Shown: positions 2 through 19,645 of the stretch, piece after piece | How positions within the stretch are numbered: the stretch's first letter is position 1 | Layout of the letters: each line of letters starts with the position of its first letter | Notes under the pieces: model-generated | Database searches by the model: none | What the model was told of the DNA's origin: nothing | The model's input: only the letters and a program-made list of their open reading frames with translations | Position numbers and translations under genes: made by a program | Assembly (NCBI GenBank): GCA_038893995.1 | Contig: JAWAQK010000040.1 | Coordinates: 2,347 to 23,112 of the forward strand | Length of the DNA stretch: 20,766 bases | From: Candidatus Thorarchaeota archaeon | GTDB lineage: Archaea; Asgardarchaeota; Thorarchaeia; Thorarchaeales; Thorarchaeaceae | Reading direction: 5' to 3'

Positions 2-2617
2 CTCTCGAACTCGGTGTCAACGAGCATCTCGGTCCTCGAGATTGTGAGTGGGGCCCTCTCGCTCTCCACCACGCAGATCCCGATCTCTGGCTCAGTGGTC
101 CTGTCGTACACACTCAATGCCAGCAATCCCTCCGGCGTACCGATCCGATTCGAGATACTCGACTACAACCTCCTCCCAGTCTGGAGCAGGATCGTGTTGA
201 CCGCCGAGAACGGGGTTGCAACGACGTCGTGCGTGGTCGACATGATTGCAGGTGTCCTTATTGTCCAGGCTACTCCACTGCCCGATGCCCTAGTTCTGGG
301 CGGAGGTTGTCAGTGTCAGTTGGTCGTGATGACAGAGTGTGTCCTGGACCTCTCGACCGTTCCATCTCCTGCGCTGAGGCACGAGGATGTCAATGTCTCG
401 TTGATCTGTCAGGACGAACTTGGCCTTCCAATCGCTCAGATCACGGTCATAGTGACCGTCATTGACCCCTATGGCAATACTGTGCGTCTTGGTCCAATAT
501 CGAACTCCATATCGGTGGTGGTCCGAAATGGCGCAGGTTCCTTCAAGTTCACTCCCGGCCTGACAGGTCTCTACAGAGTTTACATTCAGTCGTCGGGAGC
601 AGCATATGTGTATCCCTTCAACACTGACCGTTACCTCGTTGTATACACGCAAACAGTGTTGTCAGTAGAGAACTTCACCTCTCTACTGGTTACAGGAGAT
701 ACAGCATACAGCGCTGTGTCACTCCATACATCTGATGGGACTCCGATGACTGGCATGCCTATTGGGATAGTGGCGACTGGACCTGGCGGAACTGTTGTCG
801 GTCCCTTCTCGCTGGTGACCAACGACTCTGGAGTCATTCAGTGGTCATTTGTTCCGACACCCGAGGGTATTTGGACTGTCACATTTCGTTTCCTGGGCAT
901 GGGAGTCTACCTACCTTCCGATGCACAGGTCGTCATCTCAGTCTGTTACGGGACACGAATCTACCTGAACTACTCTCCGCAACAGGATATTGTTACGAGT
1001 CTGACTCCACTGGTGGTGTCGGTCCTTCTGACAGACTCCGGCGGCACACCCCTTGAGGGACGTACTATTACCTACTGTGTATACCATTCTGTTCTTGGAC
1101 TTGTGGACTCTGCAAGCTTCATTCAGCTCGGACCATCGCCTGAGACAATAGAGATCTATTTTGGACGCATGGGCAACTACACTGTGGTGTTCCTGTTCTC
1201 CGGTACCACTCACTACTTCCGTTCAAGTGCTGCAATCGACGTCTTTGTGAGGGGTCTCGTGAGCATACAGGTGGACCTTCCGCAGACTCTCGACCGATCT
1301 GAGCACCGTGAGGCCTCGCTGGTCCTCCTCGACGAAACAGGTCAACCTCTCGATCCACAGTTGCTTGAGGTCCAGCTGGTGCTACGAAGAGGTTCTCAGA
1401 TCATTCCCATCCATGACCGGCTCTCTGTGTCATCTCGATCGGTATCCCTAGATATGTTTGGGCTCGAGCCAGGCGATTACGAGCTATCAGTCTCAGTCAC
1501 TGGAACTCCTCTTCGCACGGGGGCTGCTCAGTCGTTCCCCTTCTCAGTGACTACCGTCTCACGTTTCCAGACGTCGGTGTTGGCATGCCCAGGACTGGTC
1601 GGGAACTCCCACAGGATAGTTTTCCTCCTGCTGGACTCCATCGACTCGAGACTGGACGGCATAGTCAGGGTCAGCCTGTTCGACCCACAGGGCCGCGAGA
1701 TACTCGGGAGTCCTCTGACTACAGTGACCGAGATCAACGTGGTCAATGGAACATTTGAGATATCGTGGATCCCACTCAGCATTGGATACTACAGACTTGT
1801 CATGGTGTATACTGGCCAGGACAGGATACAGTCATCTGAGATTGAGATGACGTTTCTCGCCCGCTACGAGAGCACACTGCAGGTGAGCAGTCCTGACAGG
1901 ATCAGATACATGGACCCTGCAAGGATGTACATACAACTGAGAGGAGGTACAGGAACAATCCCCAACGGCCCGCTCAAGATAGTCCTCAGGGTCGACGGGG
2001 TCCTGTTGGACATTATTGATGTCAGCGTCAACATGGCAGGCTCGTACCAGTTGGACCTCAAGGGATTGCCTGCGGGACTGCTCAATGTGACTGTCCTGTA
2101 CGAGGGATCGTCAGCGTATGCACCGTGTAGGTTGACTCGGTTCATCTGGGTCGAACCGATAGTTCAGGTCAGGGTCATTGGAGGACTCCAACATACGGTC
2201 AGGGCAAATGTGACGCTCAGTGTAGAGTCAGCTGTCCTCGGGGCGTCCTCGTCATGGTCTGGGACATTGTCTGTCCGGGTCACTGGCTCTGATGGTGAAC
2301 TCCTCTCCCGTGTCTGTACGATCGGCCCCACGCACACACTCGTGCTCTGGTTCGTCCCGATGGCGGAGGGAAACTATAGCCTAGAAGTCTGTCTGTCAGA
2401 TGTCCCGGTCTTGAACAGCTCCAGGTCCGCCTTCGTCATCACAGTGGTATCGCTCACAATCTACGAGCCCATGGTCGAGTCTGCCCCGTCGCTTGCTGGT
2501 GGAAGCCTCGCGCTAGCAGGAGTAGGTCTCCTCGTGAGGAAACGACTTCGTCTGTTGTTACGGTTCCTACCTGATGAATGGGTCGAGGAGGCAGCATCAC
2601 CGGGCACCAGTGTCTAG
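2..2617 (+). CDS. Large cell-surface/adhesin-like protein with tandem Ig-like beta-sandwich repeats and a C-terminal membrane anchor (5'-truncated by the window)
   Basis: Frame is open from position 2, so GTG at 14 is probably internal. V/S/T/G-rich ~100-aa units recur with motifs like LxDxxGxP (CQDELGLP, LTDSGGTP, LLDETGQP), DPxG (IDPYG, FDPQG) and GxYxxxxxxxGxxxYxxS (GIWTVTFRFLGMGVYLPS, GNYTVVFLFSGTTHYFRS). The hydrophobic tail SLAGGSLALAGVGLLV is followed by basic RKRLR. Confidence 0.8.
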   Translation, partial: LSNSVSTSISVLEIVSGALSLSTTQIPISGSVVLSYTLNASNPSGVPIRFEILDYNLLPVWSRIVLTAENGVATTSCVVDMIAGVLIVQATPLPDALVLGGGCQCQLVVMTECVLDLSTVPSPALRHEDVNVSLICQDELGLPIAQITVIVTVIDPYGNTVRLGPISNSISVVVRNGAGSFKFTPGLTGLYRVYIQSSGAAYVYPFNTDRYLVVYTQTVLSVENFTSLLVTGDTAYSAVSLHTSDGTPMTGMPIGIVATGPGGTVVGPFSLVTNDSGVIQWSFVPTPEGIWTVTFRFLGMGVYLPSDAQVVISVCYGTRIYLNYSPQQDIVTSLTPLVVSVLLTDSGGTPLEGRTITYCVYHSVLGLVDSASFIQLGPSPETIEIYFGRMGNYTVVFLFSGTTHYFRSSAAIDVFVRGLVSIQVDLPQTLDRSEHREASLVLLDETGQPLDPQLLEVQLVLRRGSQIIPIHDRLSVSSRSVSLDMFGLEPGDYELSVSVTGTPLRTGAAQSFPFSVTTVSRFQTSVLACPGLVGNSHRIVFLLLDSIDSRLDGIVRVSLFDPQGREILGSPLTTVTEINVVNGTFEISWIPLSIGYYRLVMVYTGQDRIQSSEIEMTFLARYESTLQVSSPDRIRYMDPARMYIQLRGGTGTIPNGPLKIVLRVDGVLLDIIDVSVNMAGSYQLDLKGLPAGLLNVTVLYEGSSAYAPCRLTRFIWVEPIVQVRVIGGLQHTVRANVTLSVESAVLGASSSWSGTLSVRVTGSDGELLSRVCTIGPTHTLVLWFVPMAEGNYSLEVCLSDVPVLNSSRSAFVITVVSLTIYEPMVESAPSLAGGSLALAGVGLLVRKRLRLLLRFLPDEWVEEAASPGTSV

Positions 2618-4408
2618 TCTACGGGTTGCCCATGGGTCTGTCCATCTGTGACTGTGGCGGTCGAACAGTCTGCTCAATGCAGAGGCCCTGTATGTCCTGT
2701 GTGTCCGGAGTGAACACGTGACGCACCTCATCTGCAGGGATCCTGCAACTTCCTCACATCTGCCACGCAGGACAAGTGCCTGACCCCGAGGGACGCGAAC
2801 GAGAGCTGCCATATCACCAGTCCTATCACTTGTGGAGAGCTCGATGTATGGTGACACTGCGACTAGCCACCGCTGAAACCTCAGACCGTCCGCGAGCGAG
2901 GAACTTGACGCCATGACGAATATTCCGTCCCATAGGCCCGTGTACTCGAGCCGGGGATGGTAGTTGACTGTCACTGCTCCTCCCCTTATCAACCGGTCTC
3001 TGGCAAGTGACCGACTTCTCCTGGGTACCACGAGCTCGCCAAGCAGACGTTCCCTCATGGCATGGGTACCGTCAAGACCCCACAGAAGTCCGAGCGTGTC
3101 GACGTCACGGGCCGAGAGTTTCAAGGGTGTATCGACTGACGGCTGGGCCAGACCTGTGTCGGTACCGCCCAGGACGTCTGAGGGCTCAGCAAGCCAGGGC
3201 TCTCTCCACTCTCCGCTCGTTGGATCAAACAGGTCCCACCTGAATGATTGGACGAGTGTGTGTGTCACTGTCTGGACGAAATCCTCCCTTGGCCAGCCTG
3301 AGGGCCCACCTGATGTGACCGGCTCCACGTATCCCAGTAGTCGCCTGAGTCGGGGGTTCCCCGTGTCAGCAGCCTCAAACAGACCTCTGGTGGGAGTTGG
3401 TGACTTGGTCCTCCTGAGCAAGATGTGTCTCATCTGAAGACCGAGACGGGGGAATACTGGGACGTAGGACTCGGTCATGACCCGTTCTATTATCTCTGAC
3501 ATCTTGGGGTCTGTCCCCAGCATGCTCCCAATTGCGGACCGAGTACACTTTCCCGGAACCGAAACAGAGGCGAGACCGACACATGCTCTCCTGATCTCGT
3601 CGTGGCGAAGTACATTGAATGACTCTAGAAGAATCTGGAGCAGTCGTCGGTGTTCATGTGCGACTGCCCCATCAGGCTGGGGATGCGTGCTGCTCCAGCA
3701 TGTTCCCACGTGACGAAGGCCTCCTATCACCTCCCCTACCTCCCTTCTGATTCGTGCCAACTCGCTCTCTCCAGACTCGGCCTTGCACATGGCAGTCTCA
3801 ATCTTGGCCTCAGGGTCGCTCGTCGGTATTCGTAGCAGCCAGTTCTGTATCCTGTTTCTGGGGAGCATGTCGAGGGGCGCAATCGCCGCGATCCTCTGCT
3901 GTGCTTTCCTCAATGCATCTATCACATCGCGGCACATGGCATCTGGCCTGAGCAGGGGTAGGACCTCAACGAGGGACTCTATTTTCTCCGACACTATCTC
4001 GTCTTGCCAGAGCGCCTTGAGCCAGGGCAGACTTTGGCCAAGTGCGGACGAGATGTGGTGAATATTCATCAGACAGCGTCCGAGTGTGTCGGTCTCATCG
4101 CTGAATGCTCTTGCAGTCTCATGTGCGTCTGTTGCACGTGCAACAGCCATAAGGACCCTGACAAGTGTCTCTCTCCGTCTGGCATCGATGGATTCCGGAA
4201 GCAACTCACTGATGGCTCTGTAGGGGTCACTCTCGGCGAGACCAGATAGGGCCCGACGGTCGGCAAGCCACGGGAGAGAGTCTACCTGAAGAGCGTTCAT
4301 CATATCGTCCAGATTCCTAGACTGACGCTGAGTCTCTAGTCTGCCCGAGACCCTCTGACTGGCCGTGCCTCTTGCACTGTCGTATCTGGCTTGGTTAAGC
4401 TGGATCAA
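2597..4408 (-). CDS. Hypothetical protein with helical N-terminal half and two C-terminal Lrp/AsnC-like (wHTH + alpha/beta) modules; apparent paralogue of 4604-6661
   Basis: 603-codon ORF. Lrp/AsnC-like linkers PVFPRLGL and HPRLEYTGL, wHTH-like RDRLIRGGAV, modules ending FDPTSGEW and FDRHSHRW. Start uncertain: TTG 4408, but the frame is open up to 4528. 3' end overlaps the convergent surface-protein gene by 21 bp. Confidence 0.7.
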   Translation of the reverse strand: MIQLNQARYDSARGTASQRVSGRLETQRQSRNLDDMMNALQVDSLPWLADRRALSGLAESDPYRAISELLPESIDARRRETLVRVLMAVARATDAHETARAFSDETDTLGRCLMNIHHISSALGQSLPWLKALWQDEIVSEKIESLVEVLPLLRPDAMCRDVIDALRKAQQRIAAIAPLDMLPRNRIQNWLLRIPTSDPEAKIETAMCKAESGESELARIRREVGEVIGGLRHVGTCWSSTHPQPDGAVAHEHRRLLQILLESFNVLRHDEIRRACVGLASVSVPGKCTRSAIGSMLGTDPKMSEIIERVMTESYVPVFPRLGLQMRHILLRRTKSPTPTRGLFEAADTGNPRLRRLLGYVEPVTSGGPSGWPREDFVQTVTHTLVQSFRWDLFDPTSGEWREPWLAEPSDVLGGTDTGLAQPSVDTPLKLSARDVDTLGLLWGLDGTHAMRERLLGELVVPRRSRSLARDRLIRGGAVTVNYHPRLEYTGLWDGIFVMASSSSLADGLRFQRWLVAVSPYIELSTSDRTGDMAALVRVPRGQALVLRGRCEEVAGSLQMRCVTCSLRTHRTYRASALSRLFDRHSHRWTDPWATRRLDTGAR

Positions 4409-4603: not shown

Positions 4604-6661
4604 TCATGCGCACTCCTGCGTGAAGGTGATCTGGCTGAGCACCTCAGAGAGGTCGGTGTCCCATGTACAGTCCTTGCGGAGCAGTCTCTGGTACATCGTG
4701 CTGAGATAAGACCGTATATGGGTCACCTCCGAAACTTGAGCTTCAACACCAAGACATTCCGACTGTCTTCTCAGAGTCTCGTGCATGGCGAAGTACTGAA
4801 ACTGAGGGACCTTCATCGTGATGTAGGCATGGCGTCCCCCATCTCCCAGTAGCACATGCGCACGTGGAGTTCCCCTGAGCAGAGACATGCTCAGACCACA
4901 GACTGCACTCTCCTCTCCCCTCAGTTCAGCCAGTAGCGTGGGCATGTTACGCATTCTCACGCTCCTGAATGGTTTCACGATACCCCGCTCTGTGAGCCTA
5001 AGTATGGTGTTCTCGAGCCTCTTGACATCAATCTGGTACTCTCTAAGAAAGCTCGGATTCTCTAGCATATCGATGTAGAAGTTATTCGATGTCAGATCCA
5101 TGGCTCTGGCTTCTTCACGGTCTATCGGCTCGTTACCCGGAATCATTGGTCCTCCCGTCCTGGTTTGGAACTCGGACACAGAGAGTGGATCGACCGGTTC
5201 TTGGTCGTTGACGAATGGTGCAGTCCAAGATCTCGCAGCGACGTCGTAGGAGGACGGGTTCAGGGTCGCAGTTTCGTGGTCGACCCTCACAACGTTCCTG
5301 AGGTTCTCCTCCAGCACTGCCACCTGATTTCGCGGTACTGTCATCACTCTCAGGAAGTTGGTTCTTCCCCTGCTGTCTTTCAGCTCTATCCACTTCTCGA
5401 GATATCGATGCGGCCAGGTGTACGCGCGACCGGAGTAGACGATCTTCTCCAGCCCGATCCTCATGAAGTCAACGCGTGTGCGTATGTTATATCCGTTGAA
5501 TACAAGCGCGGCTCTGTCCATCATCAGCTCCCGACTAGTCGATGCCATTGCCCTCGTCACGGGGAACTCTAGCAGGCCCTTACCTATCGGTTGATCTGTG
5601 ATATACCGCAGGGACCTGGGGGTCCAGTCTGGTGCATTATCGATCAGGGTCTCAGTTGCGACGTACCATGGTTCGAGATAGGACGCAACGGCACTGCCAG
5701 GCAGGACGGTTGCATTTGCTCTCTCGGCGTCATTGATCACCCTGACGTACTGTGGGGGTGGTATGCCCTCCATCTCATACTTCATGTTGACACCCATGAG
5801 CGAACTGAGAACAGGTCTAGACGCCAACGAGAGGAATACATCCACAGGATCTAGATCGAGCTGTTGTCCGCGAACGAACAACGCGAGGAATTGCATGTAC
5901 TCTTCCCGTACCCGGGGCGGAAACGTGGCAGGCACAAGTGGCTCGAGCAGATCTCTCATGCTCGACACGTTCTTGGGCAACTCAATATCGTCCATCTGCC
6001 TGATGAGCGACCAGAAGCGAGTTCTGTCTTCGGGCGGAGGGCCATCAACGACAGTCTCAATGAACCGGACGATCATCGACCTGGCTGTTCGCGTGGCGAG
6101 ACTTCTCACTGCCGCATAGACCGTTGAATCATCCTTCAGGTACAGCGACGCAAGCTCATGTGGTTGTATCGGATGCGCGCAGACAGGGATGTACTCTCTG
6201 TCAACGACTGTCAGCCAGAAAGAGGAGCTCCCCACAATGGGATGGATGAAGTAACGGTGATTCCCTACACCTGGCATCAGTCTGTAGTACCAGCCGTGAG
6301 TCGGGGGAGGGTACATGCGTTCACCTATCGTGTACGGACCAGTCTTGAACGAGGCCAACCCGGTCAGGATGTGTCTGGCCTCTACCTCGGCCACGTCCTC
6401 GGTCGGTACGAACTGCTGGACGCCCGACTCATCAAGAATGAGGAGCCCATTTGGGACAAACCTAGTCGATGCACCAACCCCAATCAGACCTTTCACACCA
6501 TAGGCAAGATCGGCCCGCCTGATATCCCCTGAATCTATCATCTTCGTACTAGTGCAGTATGCCTTGACGGGGTCAGGCAACGGGGTACGCTCCGTATTCA
6601 AGTTCGCGCAACCTTCCAAATTAAGTGTGTGCAACACGTGGGAAAAACAGATGCCCGCCAC
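4604..6661 (-). CDS. Hypothetical protein with unknown N-terminal domain and two C-terminal Lrp/AsnC-like modules; apparent paralogue of 2597-4408
   Basis: 685-codon ORF. Linker VDFMRIGL, wHTH-like LENTILRLTERGIV, modules ending YDVAARSW and RLLRKDCTW. The real start may be TTG 6601 (GGAAGGT 9 nt upstream) or ATG 6541. Confidence 0.72.
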   Translation of the reverse strand: MAGICFSHVLHTLNLEGCANLNTERTPLPDPVKAYCTSTKMIDSGDIRRADLAYGVKGLIGVGASTRFVPNGLLILDESGVQQFVPTEDVAEVEARHILTGLASFKTGPYTIGERMYPPPTHGWYYRLMPGVGNHRYFIHPIVGSSSFWLTVVDREYIPVCAHPIQPHELASLYLKDDSTVYAAVRSLATRTARSMIVRFIETVVDGPPPEDRTRFWSLIRQMDDIELPKNVSSMRDLLEPLVPATFPPRVREEYMQFLALFVRGQQLDLDPVDVFLSLASRPVLSSLMGVNMKYEMEGIPPPQYVRVINDAERANATVLPGSAVASYLEPWYVATETLIDNAPDWTPRSLRYITDQPIGKGLLEFPVTRAMASTSRELMMDRAALVFNGYNIRTRVDFMRIGLEKIVYSGRAYTWPHRYLEKWIELKDSRGRTNFLRVMTVPRNQVAVLEENLRNVVRVDHETATLNPSSYDVAARSWTAPFVNDQEPVDPLSVSEFQTRTGGPMIPGNEPIDREEARAMDLTSNNFYIDMLENPSFLREYQIDVKRLENTILRLTERGIVKPFRSVRMRNMPTLLAELRGEESAVCGLSMSLLRGTPRAHVLLGDGGRHAYITMKVPQFQYFAMHETLRRQSECLGVEAQVSEVTHIRSYLSTMYQRLLRKDCTWDTDLSEVLSQITFTQECA

Positions 6662-6687
6662 ACGTGATCCTCAACATCGGTCACGTG
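6635..6687. promoter_or_regulatory. Cluster of three CACGTG palindromes including a 7-bp inverted repeat; candidate operator or attenuator
   Basis: CACGTG at 6635-6640, 6661-6666 and 6682-6687. CACGTGA-N13-TCACGTG spans 6661-6687. It lies between the micropeptide stop and the probable start of the 685-aa gene. Confidence 0.4.
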
Positions 6688-6750
6688 CAGCGGGCCCGGG
6701 AGAGGGAATCTAGTCCGGAGATATCTCGGCGGTCCTCTGCGGAAGCATCC

Positions 6751-6951
6751 TCAGAATGGCTGATCGGGGTCGATCGGCTCTGGGGGTGCCATGAACGGGT
6801 CATCCGGAATGGTCGGACTCAGTGGAGGCGCCGAGAATGGGTCATCCGGAATGGTCGGACTCAGTGGAGGCGCCGAGAATGGGTCATCCGGAATGGTCGG
6901 ACTCAGTGGAGGGAGCACAACCCTGTTCCAGATCCAGTCGTTGTCTTGCAT
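6751..6951 (-). CDS. 66-aa Pro/Asp-rich tandem-repeat micropeptide, (PPLSPTIPDDPF)x3 + PPEPIDPDQPF
   Basis: ATG preceded by SD-like AGGAGA (6966-6961). It is the only minus frame open across the repeat. The diverged 4th unit keeps A, P, P through synonymous changes (GCG>GCA, CCT>CCC, CCG>CCC) and ends exactly at the TGA. Co-oriented with the downstream genes. Confidence 0.65.
   Translation of the reverse strand: MQDNDWIWNRVVLPPLSPTIPDDPFSAPPLSPTIPDDPFSAPPLSPTIPDDPFMAPPEPIDPDQPF
6793..6912. repeat. 42-bp direct tandem repeat, ~2.9 near-identical copies, plus a diverged 39-bp copy at 6754-6792
   Basis: Unit GAAYGGGTCATCCGGAATGGTCGGACTCAGTGGAGGCGCCGA at 6793-6834, 6835-6876 and 6877-6912 (36 bp). 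One C/T difference at 6796; no spacers. Confidence 0.97.
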
Positions 6952-7311
6952 TTCTTCTTGTCTCCTGGAGCTCTGTCCAGCGAGACCTAGTACACTGCAA
7001 TGTCATTTCTCGGCCGATGAATTCAGTCTGTTATTGGAGCACAAAACACCAACTAGATGTCATCACTGGCGGATCTGACCCTATCTCTGACGAGCTGACT
7101 TTAATTGGTGAGAAGCGGAGCTAACAAGATTGCGTTACGAGTTGTCTTGGCTGATCTGGATTGCTGCGGTCGGCCTGTTGGACCCGGCTCAACTGCAGTT
7201 CAGGCTCCAGTCGTCCGGATCATCTTGATGTCTGAGGACCTCAGGGACCTGATCTGCGTTGGCAACCAACTGTCGAGAATCCTGAGTATTTGCGAGGGAG
7301 AATGGAGACCA

Positions 7312-7346
7312 TGGCCGGCCCATGTCCTGCGGGAGCATACCGGCCA
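7312..7346 (-). terminator. GC-rich stem-loop just downstream of the rubrerythrin stop; possible terminator or 3' stability element
   Basis: Minus strand reads TGGCCGG-TATG-C-TCC-CGCA-GGA-CATG-GG-CCGGCCA, 13 nt after the stop. There is no U-tract. Confidence 0.4.
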
Positions 7347-7359
7347 GGCTTAGACAGTC

Positions 7360-7953
7360 TCAGTATTCTGAGACGTGTATCATGAAATAGGACTTCGGAT
7401 GATCACAGGCTGGACACTTCTCAGGAGGCGATGTTCCTTCGTGGACGTAGCCACAGTTCATGCAGCGCCATCTTACCTTGTTCTCTCTAGCGAACACCCT
7501 GTTCTTGGCCACGTTCTCTGCAAGAGTCATGTATCTCTCATGATGCCATGTCTCTGACTTTGCCACGCTGCGCCACAGTGCTGCTATCTTCGGAAAGCCC
7601 TCCTTCTCGGCCACTTCGGCAAAGTGGGGATACATCTCACTGAACTCGTATTTCTCTCCAGCAGCGGCATGACGGAGGTTCTCCTCTGTCTTACCGAGCG
7701 AGCCGGTCGGGAAGGTCCACTTGACCTCCAATTCAGGTGCTGCTCCATAGTCTCTGAGCATAGTGAAGAAGCGCTTTGCATGTTCCTTCTCATGATCCGC
7801 CGTTTCGAGGAAGACCTGGGCTATCTGCATGTATCCCTCATCACGGGCGATACTGGCTGCGTAGGTATATCGATTTCGTGCCTGCGACTCTCCTGCAAAT
7901 GATGTCAGAAGGTTCTTCTCAGTCTCTGTTCCCTTGATACTCTTCTGCGTCAT
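7360..7953 (-). CDS. rbr: Rubrerythrin (diiron peroxidase with C-terminal rubredoxin-like domain)
   Basis: TEKNLLTSFAGESQARNRY, EKEH, GEKYE...MYP, ETWHHERY, and C-terminal CMNCGY...CPAC. Start ATG 7953 chosen (GGAG upstream); ATG 7962 is possible. Confidence 0.96.
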   Translation of the reverse strand: MTQKSIKGTETEKNLLTSFAGESQARNRYTYAASIARDEGYMQIAQVFLETADHEKEHAKRFFTMLRDYGAAPELEVKWTFPTGSLGKTEENLRHAAAGEKYEFSEMYPHFAEVAEKEGFPKIAALWRSVAKSETWHHERYMTLAENVAKNRVFARENKVRWRCMNCGYVHEGTSPPEKCPACDHPKSYFMIHVSEY

Positions 7954-14097: not shown

Positions 14098-17000
14098 TCA
14101 TGGGTCGAGAGCGGTCGATGTTGCTGCCTGTAGGGAAGAGTGGGTCTCTTCTAGTCTTCTCATCATTCCCTCAAAACTGTCGAACCAGTACTTCCTGTAT
14201 CCCGCGGGCAGCCTGTTCTCGTCGTCAGTGAACAGGAAGAGATGTACGCAGACGGTCAGATCCGCCCAGACAAATTCCCTCTTGCCACTCCCGTCCTCGA
14301 ATATGAGCCTGTATCCATCCACCTTGTATTCGTAGTCTGTGTGTCGTGTTCCCTTCGGGTCTACAAGCACTATGGTGTATCTGCTGCCCTTCCTCAACCA
14401 GAAGATAAAGTCTGGCCTGAACTTCTCTATCCTGTTGTTGGCTCTGTTGTAGTAGGGAACATAGACATCGTCCAAGTGCTCGTCTATCTTGCAGAACATC
14501 CACCAGTCGAATCGTCCTAGTGGGCCATCTCCTCTCCGAATGGCCTCCTCTACCTGCTCGAGGAACTTCCTCTCGCTCTCGACAGTGACTATGTGACTCA
14601 CGTATCTCTCCTTCTCCCTCTCCGAGAGGATCATGGGCAGATAGTAGTGGTTTGCGACATACTTTATCTTCAGAGTAGAGCCGTCCGCCACGAATACGTC
14701 CTCCCCACTCTCCCTGCTCAGTCTCTTGATCTCTGCTGTGTATTCGTCAATGCCTATTCTCCTCTGTTCCAACATTCGCTTCAGTTCTTCTTCTTTCTCA
14801 GACAGGTTTCTGTATTCCTGTACCTTGACTATCTTTTCCTGGAGCCTGCTCAGTTTTTCTGGCTCCAGAGTCACCCGTATTCTCTTGAAATGAACAATCT
14901 CGTCTGCGAGTCGCTGAAACCTGTCGAGCTCCTGCATAGTCACGTTCACATGCCTCATCAGTCTTGACACCTGCAGGAATAGGTCTCCGTCATCCGAGGG
15001 CAGGAAATTGCCATCTCGCAAGTACTCTCGCATCTTCCTCACGGTCTGCTGAGTCAACCGGTTCTCATGCGAGAATATGGCATGGATCAGTCTGTCGTCC
15101 CCTATCCAGTCAAAGAACCTGGTCAGGAGTTCTCTGTTGCCCTCGAACCTAGGAAGCTCGGAGGGTGGCATTACCCTGCCCACGTCCCTGTAGACTGGAA
15201 TCAGTAGCTCCCTCTCTCTGGCCCGCTCGTTCTCTCTGAGTTCAATGACCTCTCCTGATGCCTCTCTCTCATATCTTATGCTCTCCAGAATGTCCTGCAC
15301 GTTGTTCCTGCTCGTCCCGAGGACAAACAGGGTCTCCATCAATGACACATCGGTCTGGTCCAGTTTCGAGAGCATGTCTTTTGCGTCGGCGTCCCCCTCC
15401 CTTCTCAGTGGGAGGAGTCGTTTTCTCCTACCGCGTATCGGTTCTATTCTGACGCCCCTACCTATGGACTGGGTGACATACTTCCTTGCATCTCCCTTCC
15501 CTATGTTTATGAAGACCATCACGTTGGGCCTGTTTGAGTCCCAGCCCTCATAGAATGCCCTCGAGCCCATGAGAATACTCACACTGTCATTTCCGTGGCT
15601 TATCTCTCTAAACACACTCACGGTCTCATAGGCGTCGCTCATCTCGTAGCCAGTCAGCTTGTCCCTCAGCCAGGTACTGATGTCGCCTATCTTGATCAGT
15701 GCAAATGGCCTCTCAGATGTCTTAAGCTTGAATACGAGCTCCTCTGTATTCTGTGGAAGCCTGATCACCTCGATGTTCCCGAAAGAGCTCGCGTTGAACA
15801 CGTACTCCAATATCTCTCTGCTGCCGGCCTGCATGAGGCGTCGTGTGTCAATGGCAACGCGGCCTCCTCCGAACACGAATCTCGGTTGCCCCGAGAACTC
15901 GTCCACGAGCTCCTTTCTAGCCTCTTCGAGTAGGCTCCCGTCTGTTCTCCCGGTTGCAAATCTCTCGATCTCCCTGAAAAACAGCTCCAGGTCTGACTCC
16001 TCGATGTTGACAGAGTTCACCAGAGCAACGAGCAGGGGGCTGTGGTAGTGCGTTCTGCCCACCCTCTCGCTGACGTTATGTTTCGCCATCCTCAGTATGG
16101 TCAGCAGTAACAGGGACTTCAGGACGATCTTCTGCTTCTCCCTACTACTGAAGTCGGTCCGGTCTCCGAACGCAGTCAGTTCCTGCTGGGACAGGTAGAC
16201 ATTCTTTCCATAGCCCTCCCTGATGAAGGTGTCAAGGTTGAAGTTGTAGACAGTCGTCAAGATGTCCCAGGGGTCAGTGAAGGTGGCTGAGAAGTTGAAT
16301 AGGAAGCCGTTTCGCGTCATTATCGAGTAGAAGACCTGCCTCTTTGAATCCTCTTTGTCTCCCTTGTGTGCCTCGTCAAGAAGGACATACCATCTCCCGT
16401 CGTTCTCGACATCCTCGAAGCCAAGCAGCTTCTCCTTCGTCTCATCTGAGATCAGGTCGGATCGATACATGAAGACATGCACTGCATCAGGAAACAGCAG
16501 CGAGTTTGACGACTTCACCTCGTCATACCTGTCCAGCTCCCAGAGCATCACCGGCCTGGTTGCACCCCTGTTGAACTCCCTCACGTGATGCTCAATCTGT
16601 TCTATGAGGTCGTCTCTGTGCGTCAGAATGAGGATGTCATTGTAGGGTATGAGTCTGGCCTCTCTCAGCCTGTCCAGCAGTTCAACGAGTTTTATCAGTA
16701 CCATGGTCTTTCCAGAACCTGTCGCCATCCAGAAGCTCATCCTGTTGACGAAGTTCAGGAACTGTACTCTCTCCTGACCGCCACTCTGTAGGACTTGGTA
16801 GTACTGCCTGAGCCTATTGAACAGACGCCTATTCCTGCCACTCTGAATTCCCATCGAATCTACAAGATGTGGCTCAGATTTCCTCAACTCGTTGAAAAGT
16901 AGTCTCTTTCTCTCAATACTGTCCAGCTCGGTCTCTGTTTCTTTGTACCTCCTCAATGACCCATAGTAGTAATGAAGCAATTTCACCGCATTCACGAGGG

Positions 17001-17142
17001 CCTCCTGCTGGTAGTCAAACAGGGTGATCGAGTCCGAGAAATGAGACAGGTCGATCCTCAACCACTCTGTCGGAATCGACTCGTAAGCAATCCCCTGTGC
17101 TATCTCCTGGTACAGCAGGGGTATTCTCTCTGAGACCGGCAT
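14098..17142 (-). CDS. res: Type III restriction enzyme Res subunit (SF2 helicase-like ATPase + PD-(D/E)xK nuclease)
   Basis: Q-motif LFDYQQEAL, Walker A MATGSGKT, LLDEAH, FSAT, EGWD, QSIGRGVR, and C-terminal FRPDF...VDPKG. Lies 1 bp downstream of mod. Confidence 0.93.
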   Translation of the reverse strand: MPVSERIPLLYQEIAQGIAYESIPTEWLRIDLSHFSDSITLFDYQQEALVNAVKLLHYYYGSLRRYKETETELDSIERKRLLFNELRKSEPHLVDSMGIQSGRNRRLFNRLRQYYQVLQSGGQERVQFLNFVNRMSFWMATGSGKTMVLIKLVELLDRLREARLIPYNDILILTHRDDLIEQIEHHVREFNRGATRPVMLWELDRYDEVKSSNSLLFPDAVHVFMYRSDLISDETKEKLLGFEDVENDGRWYVLLDEAHKGDKEDSKRQVFYSIMTRNGFLFNFSATFTDPWDILTTVYNFNLDTFIREGYGKNVYLSQQELTAFGDRTDFSSREKQKIVLKSLLLLTILRMAKHNVSERVGRTHYHSPLLVALVNSVNIEESDLELFFREIERFATGRTDGSLLEEARKELVDEFSGQPRFVFGGGRVAIDTRRLMQAGSREILEYVFNASSFGNIEVIRLPQNTEELVFKLKTSERPFALIKIGDISTWLRDKLTGYEMSDAYETVSVFREISHGNDSVSILMGSRAFYEGWDSNRPNVMVFINIGKGDARKYVTQSIGRGVRIEPIRGRRKRLLPLRREGDADAKDMLSKLDQTDVSLMETLFVLGTSRNNVQDILESIRYEREASGEVIELRENERARERELLIPVYRDVGRVMPPSELPRFEGNRELLTRFFDWIGDDRLIHAIFSHENRLTQQTVRKMREYLRDGNFLPSDDGDLFLQVSRLMRHVNVTMQELDRFQRLADEIVHFKRIRVTLEPEKLSRLQEKIVKVQEYRNLSEKEEELKRMLEQRRIGIDEYTAEIKRLSRESGEDVFVADGSTLKIKYVANHYYLPMILSEREKERYVSHIVTVESERKFLEQVEEAIRRGDGPLGRFDWWMFCKIDEHLDDVYVPYYNRANNRIEKFRPDFIFWLRKGSRYTIVLVDPKGTRHTDYEYKVDGYRLIFEDGSGKREFVWADLTVCVHLFLFTDDENRLPAGYRKYWFDSFEGMMRRLEETHSSLQAATSTALDP

Positions 17143-17143
17143 C

Positions 17144-19645
17144 TCACCACCAGAGCAGGGGTCTGATCACTCTGAAGTCCAGATCTTCGAAGGTCACTGT
17201 CTGACCGTCCTTGAAGACAACTGCATATCTCTCTATCTTCTTTATCCCCTTCCCTGTCAGGTTGGACAGAGTCTCGGCCACGTCTATATTGGGGTATACC
17301 CTTGACAAGTCAATAGTGACCCTGTCGTTCCTCTCGTCAATCTCCATCGCCTCAAGTAGCTTGAGGTCCTTCAGAAATACGTACTGTTGATAGATACTCC
17401 TGTCAGAGAAACCCACAAGCGGATCACTGGGTCTGTAGACTGCCCTTCTCAGGGTCTGTTCGTACTGTTCTAGATCGTAATACTTGAAGAATCCACCCGC
17501 GGCGTTCTCGTTGTACCTCTGTCTGACGTCCTTCTCGGTCGAGATGCCTGACCTATCGTAGGCCAGGACTCTCTTCATCCGCGGCAGGACAACGCTGTAG
17601 AGATGCTCCCCCATCTCTATGCCGATCCATTTTCTACCGAGCTTATGTGCCACTGCCACAGTGGTACCCGAACCCAGGAAGAAATCGAGAACCAGGTCAC
17701 CTCTGTCCGAGGTCGACTCTATGACCCGCTTGAGGAGGATCTCGGAGTTCTCGGTGGAGAAGTTCCAACCAGAGGAATAGCCCGGAATATCGGTCCAGTT
17801 CGAGTCTATCTGTTTCTCCTCTGTGGGAGGCAACAGGTACTCGACTCTCACCCTGTCCCTGTTGCCACAGTCCGGACATCCCGACCAGGACCCCGATGTG
17901 TGGATGCGACCACATTCTCTACATACTATCCTGATCTTTCCATCGGCCTCCATCTGTTCGATGTTCGACTGCCCGTAGGTCCAGTGCCTTCCTCTGGGTG
18001 GTTCGAGCAGGTATCCGAAGATACGCAATGGTTGACCCTGCCCCTGTGAGTCCATTGCATGCCACCTCTCACCTCTCGGAGACGGCAGTCTCTTGAATAT
18101 CAGACTGAAGTGAGGCTCGCTGGACTTGGAGTACAGATAGAGCGAGTCCGTAGCGGCATTGAACCTCGTCACCTTCGGGTCCTGCTTGCTTATCCTGGAC
18201 ACCACTATCTCGTTCCTGAAGTTCTCCTCCCCGAAAATCTGATTCATCAGAAGTCTGACGAACATATTACCGTTGTAGTCGCACCTGACAAACATGCTAC
18301 CCCTACTACAGAGCATCTCTCTGGCAAGGACAATCCGGTTCTCAAGAAGCGTTATCCAGTTGGCATCCTTGTAGTTCACGTTGTACAGAAAGTCCGCATC
18401 TGTCCCGAGGTTGAAGGGTGGATCGATGTAGATTGTCTGTACTCTCTCTCTGAACTTCGGCAATATCGTCCTCAGGGCCTGATAGTTCTCTGAGTGAATC
18501 AGCCATCCGTCGAGTTCCTCGTCAAGATCGTCGAACAGAGATAGGATCTCAGACTTGATGTCTTGGTCAAAGTACTTTGTGTCTATTGGCAGAAACCGGT
18601 ACTCCCTGTTGAGTTCCTTGCCCTCTGGTGTCATCACGATGAGACTCTCGCGATCGAACTCCTCAAGCAGTCCAAGTTCTCTCCACTCCTTCTCCTGCTC
18701 TGCAAAGCCTCTATGCCGAACTATCCTGTCGACCAGGCTGATATCTCTCTCTGCAATCTTGTCCAACGTGATCACATAGTTGCTGTTCAGGACAAACTTT
18801 GGCTTGTTCCAGATCTTCACGAGTTCGTCCTCAAACTGAGCGACAAAATCGATCACCCTGTGAGCTATGTCCTTCAGTGTCTTCAGTTGCCTGAGCCTCT
18901 TCTCTGAGAAGTCACTCTCATCGTCGAACAGGTAGTTCTTCAGCCAGAGGTCAAACTGCTCCTTCAGGAACGCACGCGCATTCTTGTTTATGAAGAAATC
19001 AACCTCGTTCTGTTTCTCAAAAGTCCTGAATATACTGCCGAGGCGCTCATCGTCTATAGGTATATGCGCTCTCTTCAGCTCGCGTAGTATCTCATCCACT
19101 CTTGTGGTCCTTCCTCTCTCAGAGTATAGGACAGAAAACACGATCTCTCGGTCAGTGACGCTCTTCAGTTCGTAGACCAAGAGTCTCTTCTCATTACCCC
19201 TCTTGTGTTCAAGCCTAGAGACATCAAAGACGACCCTATACCTGACACTCTGTTCCTCGAACTCGATGTTCAGATTGTGCCAGAGCCTGTCGGTCTTCAC
19301 GTAGTAGAGCATGTGGGTCTTCCAGAACAGTGCGACATCCTTCTGGTTAGTATAGACTCTCTCATACAGGTTCGATTTCAGGGGGGTGTAGCTGAAGTAG
19401 ATACTGCCTGACTCTGAGAAGTAGGTCTTGAAGAAGTCGTAGAGCCTTCGGAACATCTCCTCTCTAAACTCTGGGAATTCTCTCGTTCTATCATCGATCT
19501 CGCTACAGAGTTCTCTGAAAATCGAGTCGAAATACGCCGACTTGATCCTCATCAGATTGATGAATCCTGACTCTCCCTCTATCTTCGCGCCTACGAATAT
19601 GTCCTTGAGCCTATCAAAGAACAGTTTCTCACTCTGACCCACCAC
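17144..19645 (-). CDS. mod: Type III R-M Mod subunit (beta-class adenine DNA methyltransferase)
   Basis: Motif IV IYIDPPFN precedes the variable region and motif I VLDFFLGSGTT...LGRKWIGIE. Long N-terminal extension. GTG start with GGTGA upstream. Confidence 0.94.
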   Translation of the reverse strand: MVGQSEKLFFDRLKDIFVGAKIEGESGFINLMRIKSAYFDSIFRELCSEIDDRTREFPEFREEMFRRLYDFFKTYFSESGSIYFSYTPLKSNLYERVYTNQKDVALFWKTHMLYYVKTDRLWHNLNIEFEEQSVRYRVVFDVSRLEHKRGNEKRLLVYELKSVTDREIVFSVLYSERGRTTRVDEILRELKRAHIPIDDERLGSIFRTFEKQNEVDFFINKNARAFLKEQFDLWLKNYLFDDESDFSEKRLRQLKTLKDIAHRVIDFVAQFEDELVKIWNKPKFVLNSNYVITLDKIAERDISLVDRIVRHRGFAEQEKEWRELGLLEEFDRESLIVMTPEGKELNREYRFLPIDTKYFDQDIKSEILSLFDDLDEELDGWLIHSENYQALRTILPKFRERVQTIYIDPPFNLGTDADFLYNVNYKDANWITLLENRIVLAREMLCSRGSMFVRCDYNGNMFVRLLMNQIFGEENFRNEIVVSRISKQDPKVTRFNAATDSLYLYSKSSEPHFSLIFKRLPSPRGERWHAMDSQGQGQPLRIFGYLLEPPRGRHWTYGQSNIEQMEADGKIRIVCRECGRIHTSGSWSGCPDCGNRDRVRVEYLLPPTEEKQIDSNWTDIPGYSSGWNFSTENSEILLKRVIESTSDRGDLVLDFFLGSGTTVAVAHKLGRKWIGIEMGEHLYSVVLPRMKRVLAYDRSGISTEKDVRQRYNENAAGGFFKYYDLEQYEQTLRRAVYRPSDPLVGFSDRSIYQQYVFLKDLKLLEAMEIDERNDRVTIDLSRVYPNIDVAETLSNLTGKGIKKIERYAVVFKDGQTVTFEDLDFRVIRPLLWW

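Follow-up and report, generated by a model that had tools for sequence, protein, structure and literature searches.

A multi-unit proline-rich micropeptide gene upstream of an Lrp/AsnC-like gene in Thorarchaeota and its possible function

Background

A short, proline-rich open reading frame (ORF) made of tandem repeats lies in a stretch of 20,766 nucleotides (nt) from the genome of a Candidatus Thorarchaeota archaeon (assembly GCA_038893995.1, contig JAWAQK010000040.1, positions 2,347 to 23,112 of the forward strand; this whole stretch is hereafter called the window, and all positions refer to it). The locus raises the question of whether such a frame is a gene at all and, if it is, what a peptide of this kind might do. 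To our knowledge, functional micropeptides are almost unknown in Archaea, and we know of no peptide-ligand or leader-peptide control system established in Asgard archaea, the closest prokaryotic relatives of eukaryotes.

Comparison with related loci indicates that the frame at 6751..6951 on the minus strand is very probably a translated micropeptide gene. As judged from these comparisons, its product is a four-unit, Phe-ended, lineage-specific member of a family of 12- to 66-residue peptides in the Thorarchaeota (Asgard archaea), and what defines the gene is its constant place upstream of the gene for a family-specific Lrp/AsnC-like protein of about 650 amino acids (aa), with which it forms a conserved cassette. 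Literature searches returned no description of the micropeptide family, which is restricted to one archaeal family. It is defined by strong comparative evidence, namely its occurrence in eight genera, purifying selection and a fixed partner gene. Since the partner is foldable and of a recognisable type and the peptides are short enough for synthesis, the question of their function is directly testable; a ligand acting in trans and a leader acting in cis would each be new for archaeal gene regulation.

Structure of the micropeptide gene

The gene consists of the following features.

6961..6966, minus strand: Shine-Dalgarno-like AGGAGA, 9 nt 5' of the ATG of the micro-ORF (sequence scan)
6751..6951, minus strand: micropeptide gene with ATG start, 66 codons (20 of them Pro) and TGA stop (ORF listing)
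6913..6951, minus strand: N-terminal head MQDNDWIWNRVVL, 13 codons (translation)
6793..6912, minus strand: recent tandem amplification, a 42-nt unit present 2.9 times with 98% matches, coding for PPLSPTIPDDPF plus a two-residue linker (Tandem Repeats Finder)
6754..6792, minus strand: fourth unit, M-APPEPIDPDQPF, older and diverged, terminating at the stop like the single-unit orthologues (unit comparison)

From its N-terminus, the 66-residue product reads as the head MQDNDWIWNRVVL, three copies of PPLSPTIPDDPF with SA, SA and MA as spacers, and APPEPIDPDQPF directly before the stop. The ORF and unit analyses agreed with the initial annotation, which had been made from the sequence alone, on the length, the proline content, the 13-residue head and the three cores followed by a diverged fourth; the repeat period given by Tandem Repeats Finder is 42 nt, that is, 14 codons and not 13. 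The changes that the annotation had described in the fourth unit were also recovered exactly. In comparison with the repeat, they are synonymous at Ala, Pro and Pro (GCG to GCA, CCT to CCC and CCG to CCC), with replacements of L by E, T by I, I by D and D by Q, and with one whole-codon deletion (Ser). The inner units end in ..PTIPDDPF, and the C-terminus of the whole product is ..PIDPDQPF followed by the stop, of which DQPF-stop fits the end signature of the family described below. The head MQDNDWIWNRVVL is faintly similar to the D-N-W-F/I-x-T-L heads of three long-type members of the family (L061, L066 and L067), a likeness that is suggestive only.

Evidence that the micro-ORF is coding

Because the period of the repeat is divisible by three, the frames on the plus strand are open as well (all three of them across the repeat, with 121, 95 and 100 aa), so that the openness of the micro-ORF is by itself no evidence of coding. 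The case for coding comes instead from comparisons.

A second small ORF in the same genome (locus L002; G000:C28:54-188, plus strand), with 44 codons and the end ..PPLSPTIPDDPFGR, holds the identical 12 residues PPLSPTIPDDPF two residues short of its stop. The DNA for these residues in the window and at L002 differs at 7 of 36 nt, and all seven differences are synonymous and at third positions, whereas seven random differences would all fall on third positions with a probability of about 9.5e-5. The flanks of the two copies are unrelated, indicating that the copy at L002 is neither a repeat element nor the result of a recent gene conversion. This single-unit copy lies at a contig edge, and the genes that begin 198 nt downstream of it are an NfeD-like and a Holliday-junction-resolvase-like one, not an Lrp-like one. 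The same pattern of purifying selection on the peptide was found in the alignment of a single genus, in which the variation in the micro-ORF is mainly synonymous and the flanks have diverged, and the Glu and Pro codons ahead of the final Trp vary synonymously between genera. Shine-Dalgarno-like 5-mers precede 19 of 32 micro-ORFs of the family, compared with 7.5% of control ATGs. No Rfam family matched the region 6000-7600.

The near-identical DNA of units 1 to 3, the divergence of unit 4 and the synonymous-only differences at L002 bear out the initial annotation's view of a genuine small protein whose motif is old and whose expansion is recent. That annotation had proposed a check of orthologous loci for stops or frameshifts; in other genera the ORF is intact and carries the same signature at its C-terminus, an outcome in favour of the annotation. 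Its suggestion that gene callers had probably missed the gene did not hold, since the exact 66-residue product is already present in a predicted-protein collection.

The micropeptide family in related genomes

The family was detected solely through synteny with the large downstream gene. As a word-index query against 5.8 billion proteins, the peptide matched only itself; a six-frame search of 40 relatives gave weak, spurious matches only, and searches of Pfam, NCBIfam and PDB sequences gave no match. An exhaustive HMMER profile search returned six low-complexity, Pro- or DPF-rich matches with no evident relation. One of these, the 429-aa protein P0005, carries about 15 tandem ..IEDDPFS[PA]PS.. 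units that form an Eps15/epsin-style DPF region, and it matched purely through its DDPFSAP motif.

We describe the family from 46 unique loci with sufficient upstream sequence, which belong to eight genera of one family. In 34 of them, a micro-ORF lies upstream of the large gene on the same strand, and its product ends in an acidic residue, Gly or a polar residue followed by Pro-Trp/Phe, with the aromatic residue at the stop or at most three residues from it. The lengths range from 12 to 66 residues; the majority have 12-16 and the form M-x(2-6)-P-x-x-P-E-P-W. The conserved portion is the C-terminal Pro-x-x-Pro-acidic-Pro-Trp/Phe, and nothing else is widely kept. ORF ends of the type [EG]P[FW]-stop were distributed as follows.

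300 nt upstream, same strand: 25/453
300 nt upstream, reverse strand: 0/419
Inside the large gene, same strand (off frames): 1/2386
Inside the large gene, reverse strand: 1/2894
Shuffled sequence: 5/22307

The stop codons of the family are TGA (13), TAA (11) and TAG (8), and several members have two or three additional residues beyond the aromatic. The distance from the stop of the micro-ORF to the ATG of the large gene varies between 21 and 518 nt and is 209 nt in the window.

In a tree of the large proteins, the peptide types track the clades; the window member has a long branch and a genus of its own. Phe-ended peptides occur in three or more independent lineages. At least five clades (that of the window, L026, L069, L033/L036 and L067) amplified the motif unit independently, and each amplification retains whole units ending in Pro-Trp/Phe. 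Upstream of the large gene at L069 (G089:C100), at least five tandem units RPYSPGPEPF with a GL linker form an array that is broken by a run of N. As the assembler did not resolve this repeat, the unit numbers in draft genomes may be underestimated.

Divergent end motifs were sought in the 11-12 loci without a recognisable peptide, and none was found; the loci of the basal clade of the large protein that have no micro-ORF are L034, L035, L038, L040, L042 and L043. At two loci (L054:1468-3672, minus strand, and L056:68-2272, plus strand), the micro-ORF and the large ORF share one frame, being separated by two adjacent stops (TAG TAA or TAA TAG) and an open linker of 29 codons. This shared frame is probably due to chance, although read-through of the stops would fuse both ORFs.

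The Lrp/AsnC-like partner gene

4604..6541, minus strand: partner gene, 645 aa from its ATG, directly downstream of the micropeptide gene (homologues, profile and AlphaFold2 model)

Of 24 genomes sampled from the same family, 21 have homologues of the partner of about 660 aa, 23-29% identical to it, as against none of 16 outside the family. With a profile, which the window protein matches with an E-value of 1e-196, the large protein was found in 75 of 86 genomes of the family, often in two copies each, and the 157 other genomes of the phylum gave two weak partial matches. The protein evolves fast; its invariant Trp, Tyr and Arg residues include W376, W439, R619, W627 and Y128. A related-locus search with the 685-aa ORF of the partner returned nothing.

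The 645-aa protein had no match in Pfam, NCBIfam or PDB sequences, including the profiles HTH_AsnC and AsnC_trans_reg. Its AlphaFold2 model (predicted local distance difference test, pLDDT, 87.6; predicted template modelling score, pTM, 0.86) shows an N-terminal beta domain (residues 1-125), a helical region (127-350) and a C-terminal pair of winged helix-turn-helix (wHTH) plus RAM modules. The C-terminal half of the model resembles NirDL (Foldseek, E-value 2e-6 to 4ch7; VIA, Z 10.7 over 268 residues of 4czc_A), and residues 470-620 superpose on about 12 whole Lrp/AsnC regulators (VIA, Z 4.5-5.6). The siroheme decarboxylase NirDL is a fusion of two Lrp/AsnC-type wHTH plus RAM modules, and its fold is an enzyme fold of haem d1 synthesis. 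A search of the ESM Atlas gave a best score of 0.87, to be taken as a lead only, and the neighbouring clusters hold families with AsnC-type HTH. As the fold matches are accompanied by no match of a sequence profile, we call the protein Lrp-like by its predicted fold only. Its C-terminal 340 residues superpose on the fused double wHTH plus RAM modules of NirDL/AhbAB (4ch7, 4czc). Unlike these decarboxylases and the Lrp/AsnC regulators, it has an extra N-terminal part of about 350 residues, beta and helical, and it occurs in one archaeal family only.

RNA structure between the two genes

6653..6695, minus strand: hairpin with a 15-bp stem (two G-U pairs) and a 13-nt loop, in which 6695-6681 pairs with 6667-6653 (RNA folding)
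6643..6647, minus strand: T5 run, 5 nt past the hairpin, putatively terminator- or attenuator-like, which could also be part of the next promoter

The hairpin of the window has a folding energy of -33.7 kcal/mol (z -4.47). The built-in terminator scan did not report it because its loop is 13 nt long. In most loci, a stable hairpin begins 9-57 nt past the stop of the micro-ORF, often with a T-run. When 110-nt regions from 33 loci were folded and compared with shuffles, structure was concentrated in the region that follows the micro-ORF, as listed here.

110 nt after the stop of the micro-ORF: mean z -2.1; z < -2 in 19/33 loci
110 nt upstream of the micro-ORF: mean z 0.0; z < -2 in 1/33 loci
110 nt inside the large gene: mean z 0.09; z < -2 in 1/33 loci

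The 3' region of the orphan copy at L002 is structured too (z -2.1), and the hairpin may thus simply belong to the peptide gene.

Three CACGTG palindromes occur within 53 nt on the minus strand (6618-6730 region), two of them in the arms of the hairpin. The palindrome GAGATATCTC is found at 6727-6718, and a TTAATTT box at 6624-6618, about 80 nt ahead of the ATG of the large gene. All three kinds of element are candidate operator or promoter elements. In genus g3, the conserved near-palindrome found upstream of the micro-ORF is another one, GAAGTTAACGTTC.

Possible function of the micropeptide

Starting from what we regard as established (coding, conservation, linkage, the fold modelled for the partner, the hairpin in the RNA and the motif in the tail of a neighbouring surface protein described below), we tentatively favour the reading that the peptide is a trans-acting short linear motif that would bind the adjacent Lrp-like protein. 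Each aromatic-ended unit would then serve as one binding unit, amplification of the units would yield a multivalent ligand or, after cleavage behind Phe/Trp, several ligands, and binding of the peptide would modulate the regulatory output of the Lrp-like protein. The hairpin and T-run would serve to terminate or stabilise an abundant short mRNA for the peptide, and would keep read-through into the partner gene low.

Several observations point to a ligand of this kind. The fast divergence between genera, together with two protein-identical, unlinked copies in one genome, argues for a lineage-specific partner and not for the invariant ribosome. The orphan copy at L002, away from any large gene, suggests action in trans, and the recurrent amplification of complete units is in keeping with multivalent or multi-copy ligands. 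The agreement of peptide types with clades of the large protein, the fast evolution of that protein, and the surface-protein gene, syntenic with the large gene and with a tail motif unique in the genome, point the same way. The Lrp/AsnC family senses small molecules, and the ligand-binding modules of the partner likewise favour a peptide ligand.

Other points weigh against a trans-acting ligand. The 11-12 loci without a recognisable peptide include the basal clade of the large protein, and the related genomes are not independent, so that the counts given for the family overstate the support. The size and position of the peptide, the conserved C-terminus by the stop and the hairpin with T-run are equally typical of leader or arrest peptides. 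A weak negative came from a tethered AlphaFold model of the in-frame peptide, linker and large protein of L054 (table 6), in which the peptide stayed undocked and the peptide and linker had a pLDDT of 23-38; this outcome is uninformative and neither supports nor excludes binding.

The main rival, somewhat less likely than a trans-acting ligand, is that the micro-ORF encodes a cis-acting leader or arrest peptide, translation of which would control whether read-through past the hairpin and T-run reaches the Lrp-like gene. Slowed by the Pro-rich tract or at the Pro-aromatic-stop end, ribosomes would mask or remodel the terminator, and the peptide sequence would matter only in the ribosome tunnel. 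TnaC is a published precedent, as is PepNL, a peptide of 14 residues that arrests termination (PMC11890864). The micropeptides share with these leaders, and with those of the trpL type, a size of 12-16 codons in most orthologues, a place just upstream on the same strand, conservation confined to the last residues before the stop with Pro and Trp beside it, and a hairpin, often with a T-run, after the micro-ORF in most loci (-33.7 kcal/mol and T5 in the window); Pro-rich tracts are, moreover, known stalling sequences. A short upstream ORF followed by a terminator- or antiterminator-like structure, as expected of a leader, was thus found. However, all three stop codons are in use, and the dependence of the PepNL type on one stop codon is not seen; several members continue for two or three residues after the aromatic, and the distances to the hairpin and the large gene vary greatly (21-518 nt from the stop of the micro-ORF to the ATG of the large gene). 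Amplification of whole units in at least five lineages would have no role in a leader, and an arrest motif read by the ribosome should not diverge so fast while two unlinked copies stay identical in protein sequence. The orphan copy also has a structured 3' region. The trans-acting ligand and the cis-acting leader are not mutually exclusive, and both may hold.

We consider it improbable that the micro-ORF encodes a precursor with several cores, from which a peptide that is secreted or modified after translation would be cut, that is, a pheromone or a product like a peptide that ribosomes make and that is modified post-translationally (RiPP), with the large neighbour as its maturation enzyme or receptor. 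Tandem cores with conserved termini, as in graspetides/microviridins, cyanobactins and the yeast alpha-factor, arose here repeatedly, with unit boundaries that follow the aromatic, and the neighbour has a NirDL-type fold, which is that of an enzyme. On the other hand, most members have 12-16 residues, with no leader or recognition sequence, signal peptide or double-Gly site, and no known maturation enzyme is nearby: a Pfam scan of the large ORFs of the window revealed no ATP-grasp, radical SAM, YcaO, protease or dedicated exporter. The amino-acid ATP-binding cassette (ABC) importer upstream lies outside the conserved neighbourhood. The initial annotation had likened the Ser/Thr followed by Asp-Asp in the repeated cores to graspetide precursors, and had noted that no ATP-grasp ligase is in the window. 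The latter observation stands, for no ATP-grasp was found in the 16 large ORFs of the window by Pfam or in the conserved neighbourhood of the relatives; the likeness finds no support, as the family does not conserve the Ser/Thr and Asp-Asp positions. The Thr/Ser and Asp/Glu positions that would form the rings are absent from the short orthologues, in which Pro, a single acidic residue and the aromatic end are all that is kept, and we rejected a graspetide precursor.

Much less probable still is that the peptide is a eukaryote-like motif of endocytic type, in which the Asgard cell would use the DP[FW] repeats to recruit a partner in trafficking or in the cytoskeleton and not the neighbour. The ..DDPFS[PA]P.. 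repeats in which P0005 is rich, and the internal S/N-P-F-acidic motif of long-type members of the family, would fit such a role. The family consensus is nevertheless E-P-W at a free C-terminus and not an internal DPF, no domain of the appendage type was identified, it is the Lrp-like protein that is tightly linked, and the likeness amounts to a three-residue motif in a low-complexity context. Hardly credible, finally, is a non-coding tandem repeat whose frame merely happens to be open, its period being a multiple of three: four frames or more are open across it and units 1 to 3 are too alike to carry a signal of selection, but the unlinked copy at L002 differs at synonymous sites only, micro-ORFs are conserved at the same place in eight genera, a Shine-Dalgarno-like site is present and Rfam gave no match.

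For a trans-acting ligand, the nearest known counterparts are the RRNPP and leaderless peptide cassettes of Bacillota (PMC10075063, PMC10518010). There, too, a tiny gene adjoins that of a large cytoplasmic HTH-bearing protein, the C-terminus of the peptide is the informative part, peptide types track receptor clades, and some peptides are leaderless with about 8-20 residues. In the micropeptide cassette, we likewise found gene adjacency and C-terminal conservation, with no signal peptide evident in the micropeptides. The partner, however, is Lrp/AsnC-like (wHTH plus RAM) and not HTH plus TPR, the host is archaeal, the peptides can be multi-unit, and no export or import system was identified; no homology in sequence or fold was found, and the likeness is one of analogy only. 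Fold searches of the partner returned Lrp/AsnC/NirDL-type modules and no TPR receptor, the N-terminal 350 residues not having been searched separately. By analogy, the micropeptide cassette appears most like the RRNPP and leaderless cassettes or the arrest leaders in its working, and it is homologous to neither.

The surface protein and the remaining neighbourhood

14..2617, plus strand: 3' part of the gene for an immunoglobulin-like (Ig-like) surface protein, convergent (Pfam Ig-like domains), with the tail L-P-D-E-W at 2567-2581
2597..4408, minus strand: ORF of 603 aa between the partner and surface-protein genes, in this genome only; in relatives, the two genes abut

In relatives, the surface protein is an open frame of about 2,600 aa, present in one copy per genome, and its gene is directly convergent with the large gene in most of them. 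It was found in 37 of 43 genomes of the family and in none of 157 outside, the same restriction as that of the Lrp-like protein. Its end consists of a transmembrane helix, a basic stretch and a short tail, predicted to be cytoplasmic, with L-P-x-[DE]-W a few residues before the stop. The tail motif is present at 17 adjacent loci and in 18 of 20 further genomes, the other two being read out of frame (loci L018-L026, L046, L048, L052, L061, L064, L066, L069 and L077-L096). Among 5,828 ORFs of at least 100 aa in the genome of the window, that of the surface protein is the sole one with an L-P-x-[DE]-W end. The basal-clade large genes listed above lie on the same contig as the 3' end of the surface-protein gene, 15-32 kb from it and not convergent; as this clade lacks the tight arrangement, the three-gene arrangement seems to be derived.

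The tail of the surface protein (LPDEW) and the peptide (IPDDPF) are alike in having a hydrophobic residue, Pro, acidic residues and an aromatic. More speculatively, therefore, the tail could be a second ligand of the same site on the Lrp-like protein, for which the peptide and a receptor tail would compete. We can imagine, and hold to be quite unlikely, an Asgard-specific module of three parts, in which the surface tail docks the Lrp-like regulator and the four-unit micropeptide mimics the tail, competes with it, and releases or captures the regulator. If true, it would give Archaea their first described regulatory circuit with a peptide ligand and would exemplify eukaryote-style mimicry of motifs among the prokaryotes most closely related to eukaryotes. 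The repeated unit amplification and the related surface-tail motif offer handles to separate a ligand acting in trans from a leader acting in cis.

The 603-aa ORF is outside the conserved module. It had no match in Pfam, NCBIfam or PDB sequences, and BLASTP detected no similarity between it and the 685-aa ORF of the partner. By hhalign, its last roughly 200 residues aligned weakly with the last Lrp-like module (probability 55%, E-value 1e-4), with which it shares a C-terminal Trp-Asp signature, and it may at best be a remote relative of that module. Farther along the window, a Type III restriction-modification pair unrelated to the micropeptide occupies 14098-19645 on the minus strand (Res helicase, 1014 aa; Mod methylase, 833 aa).

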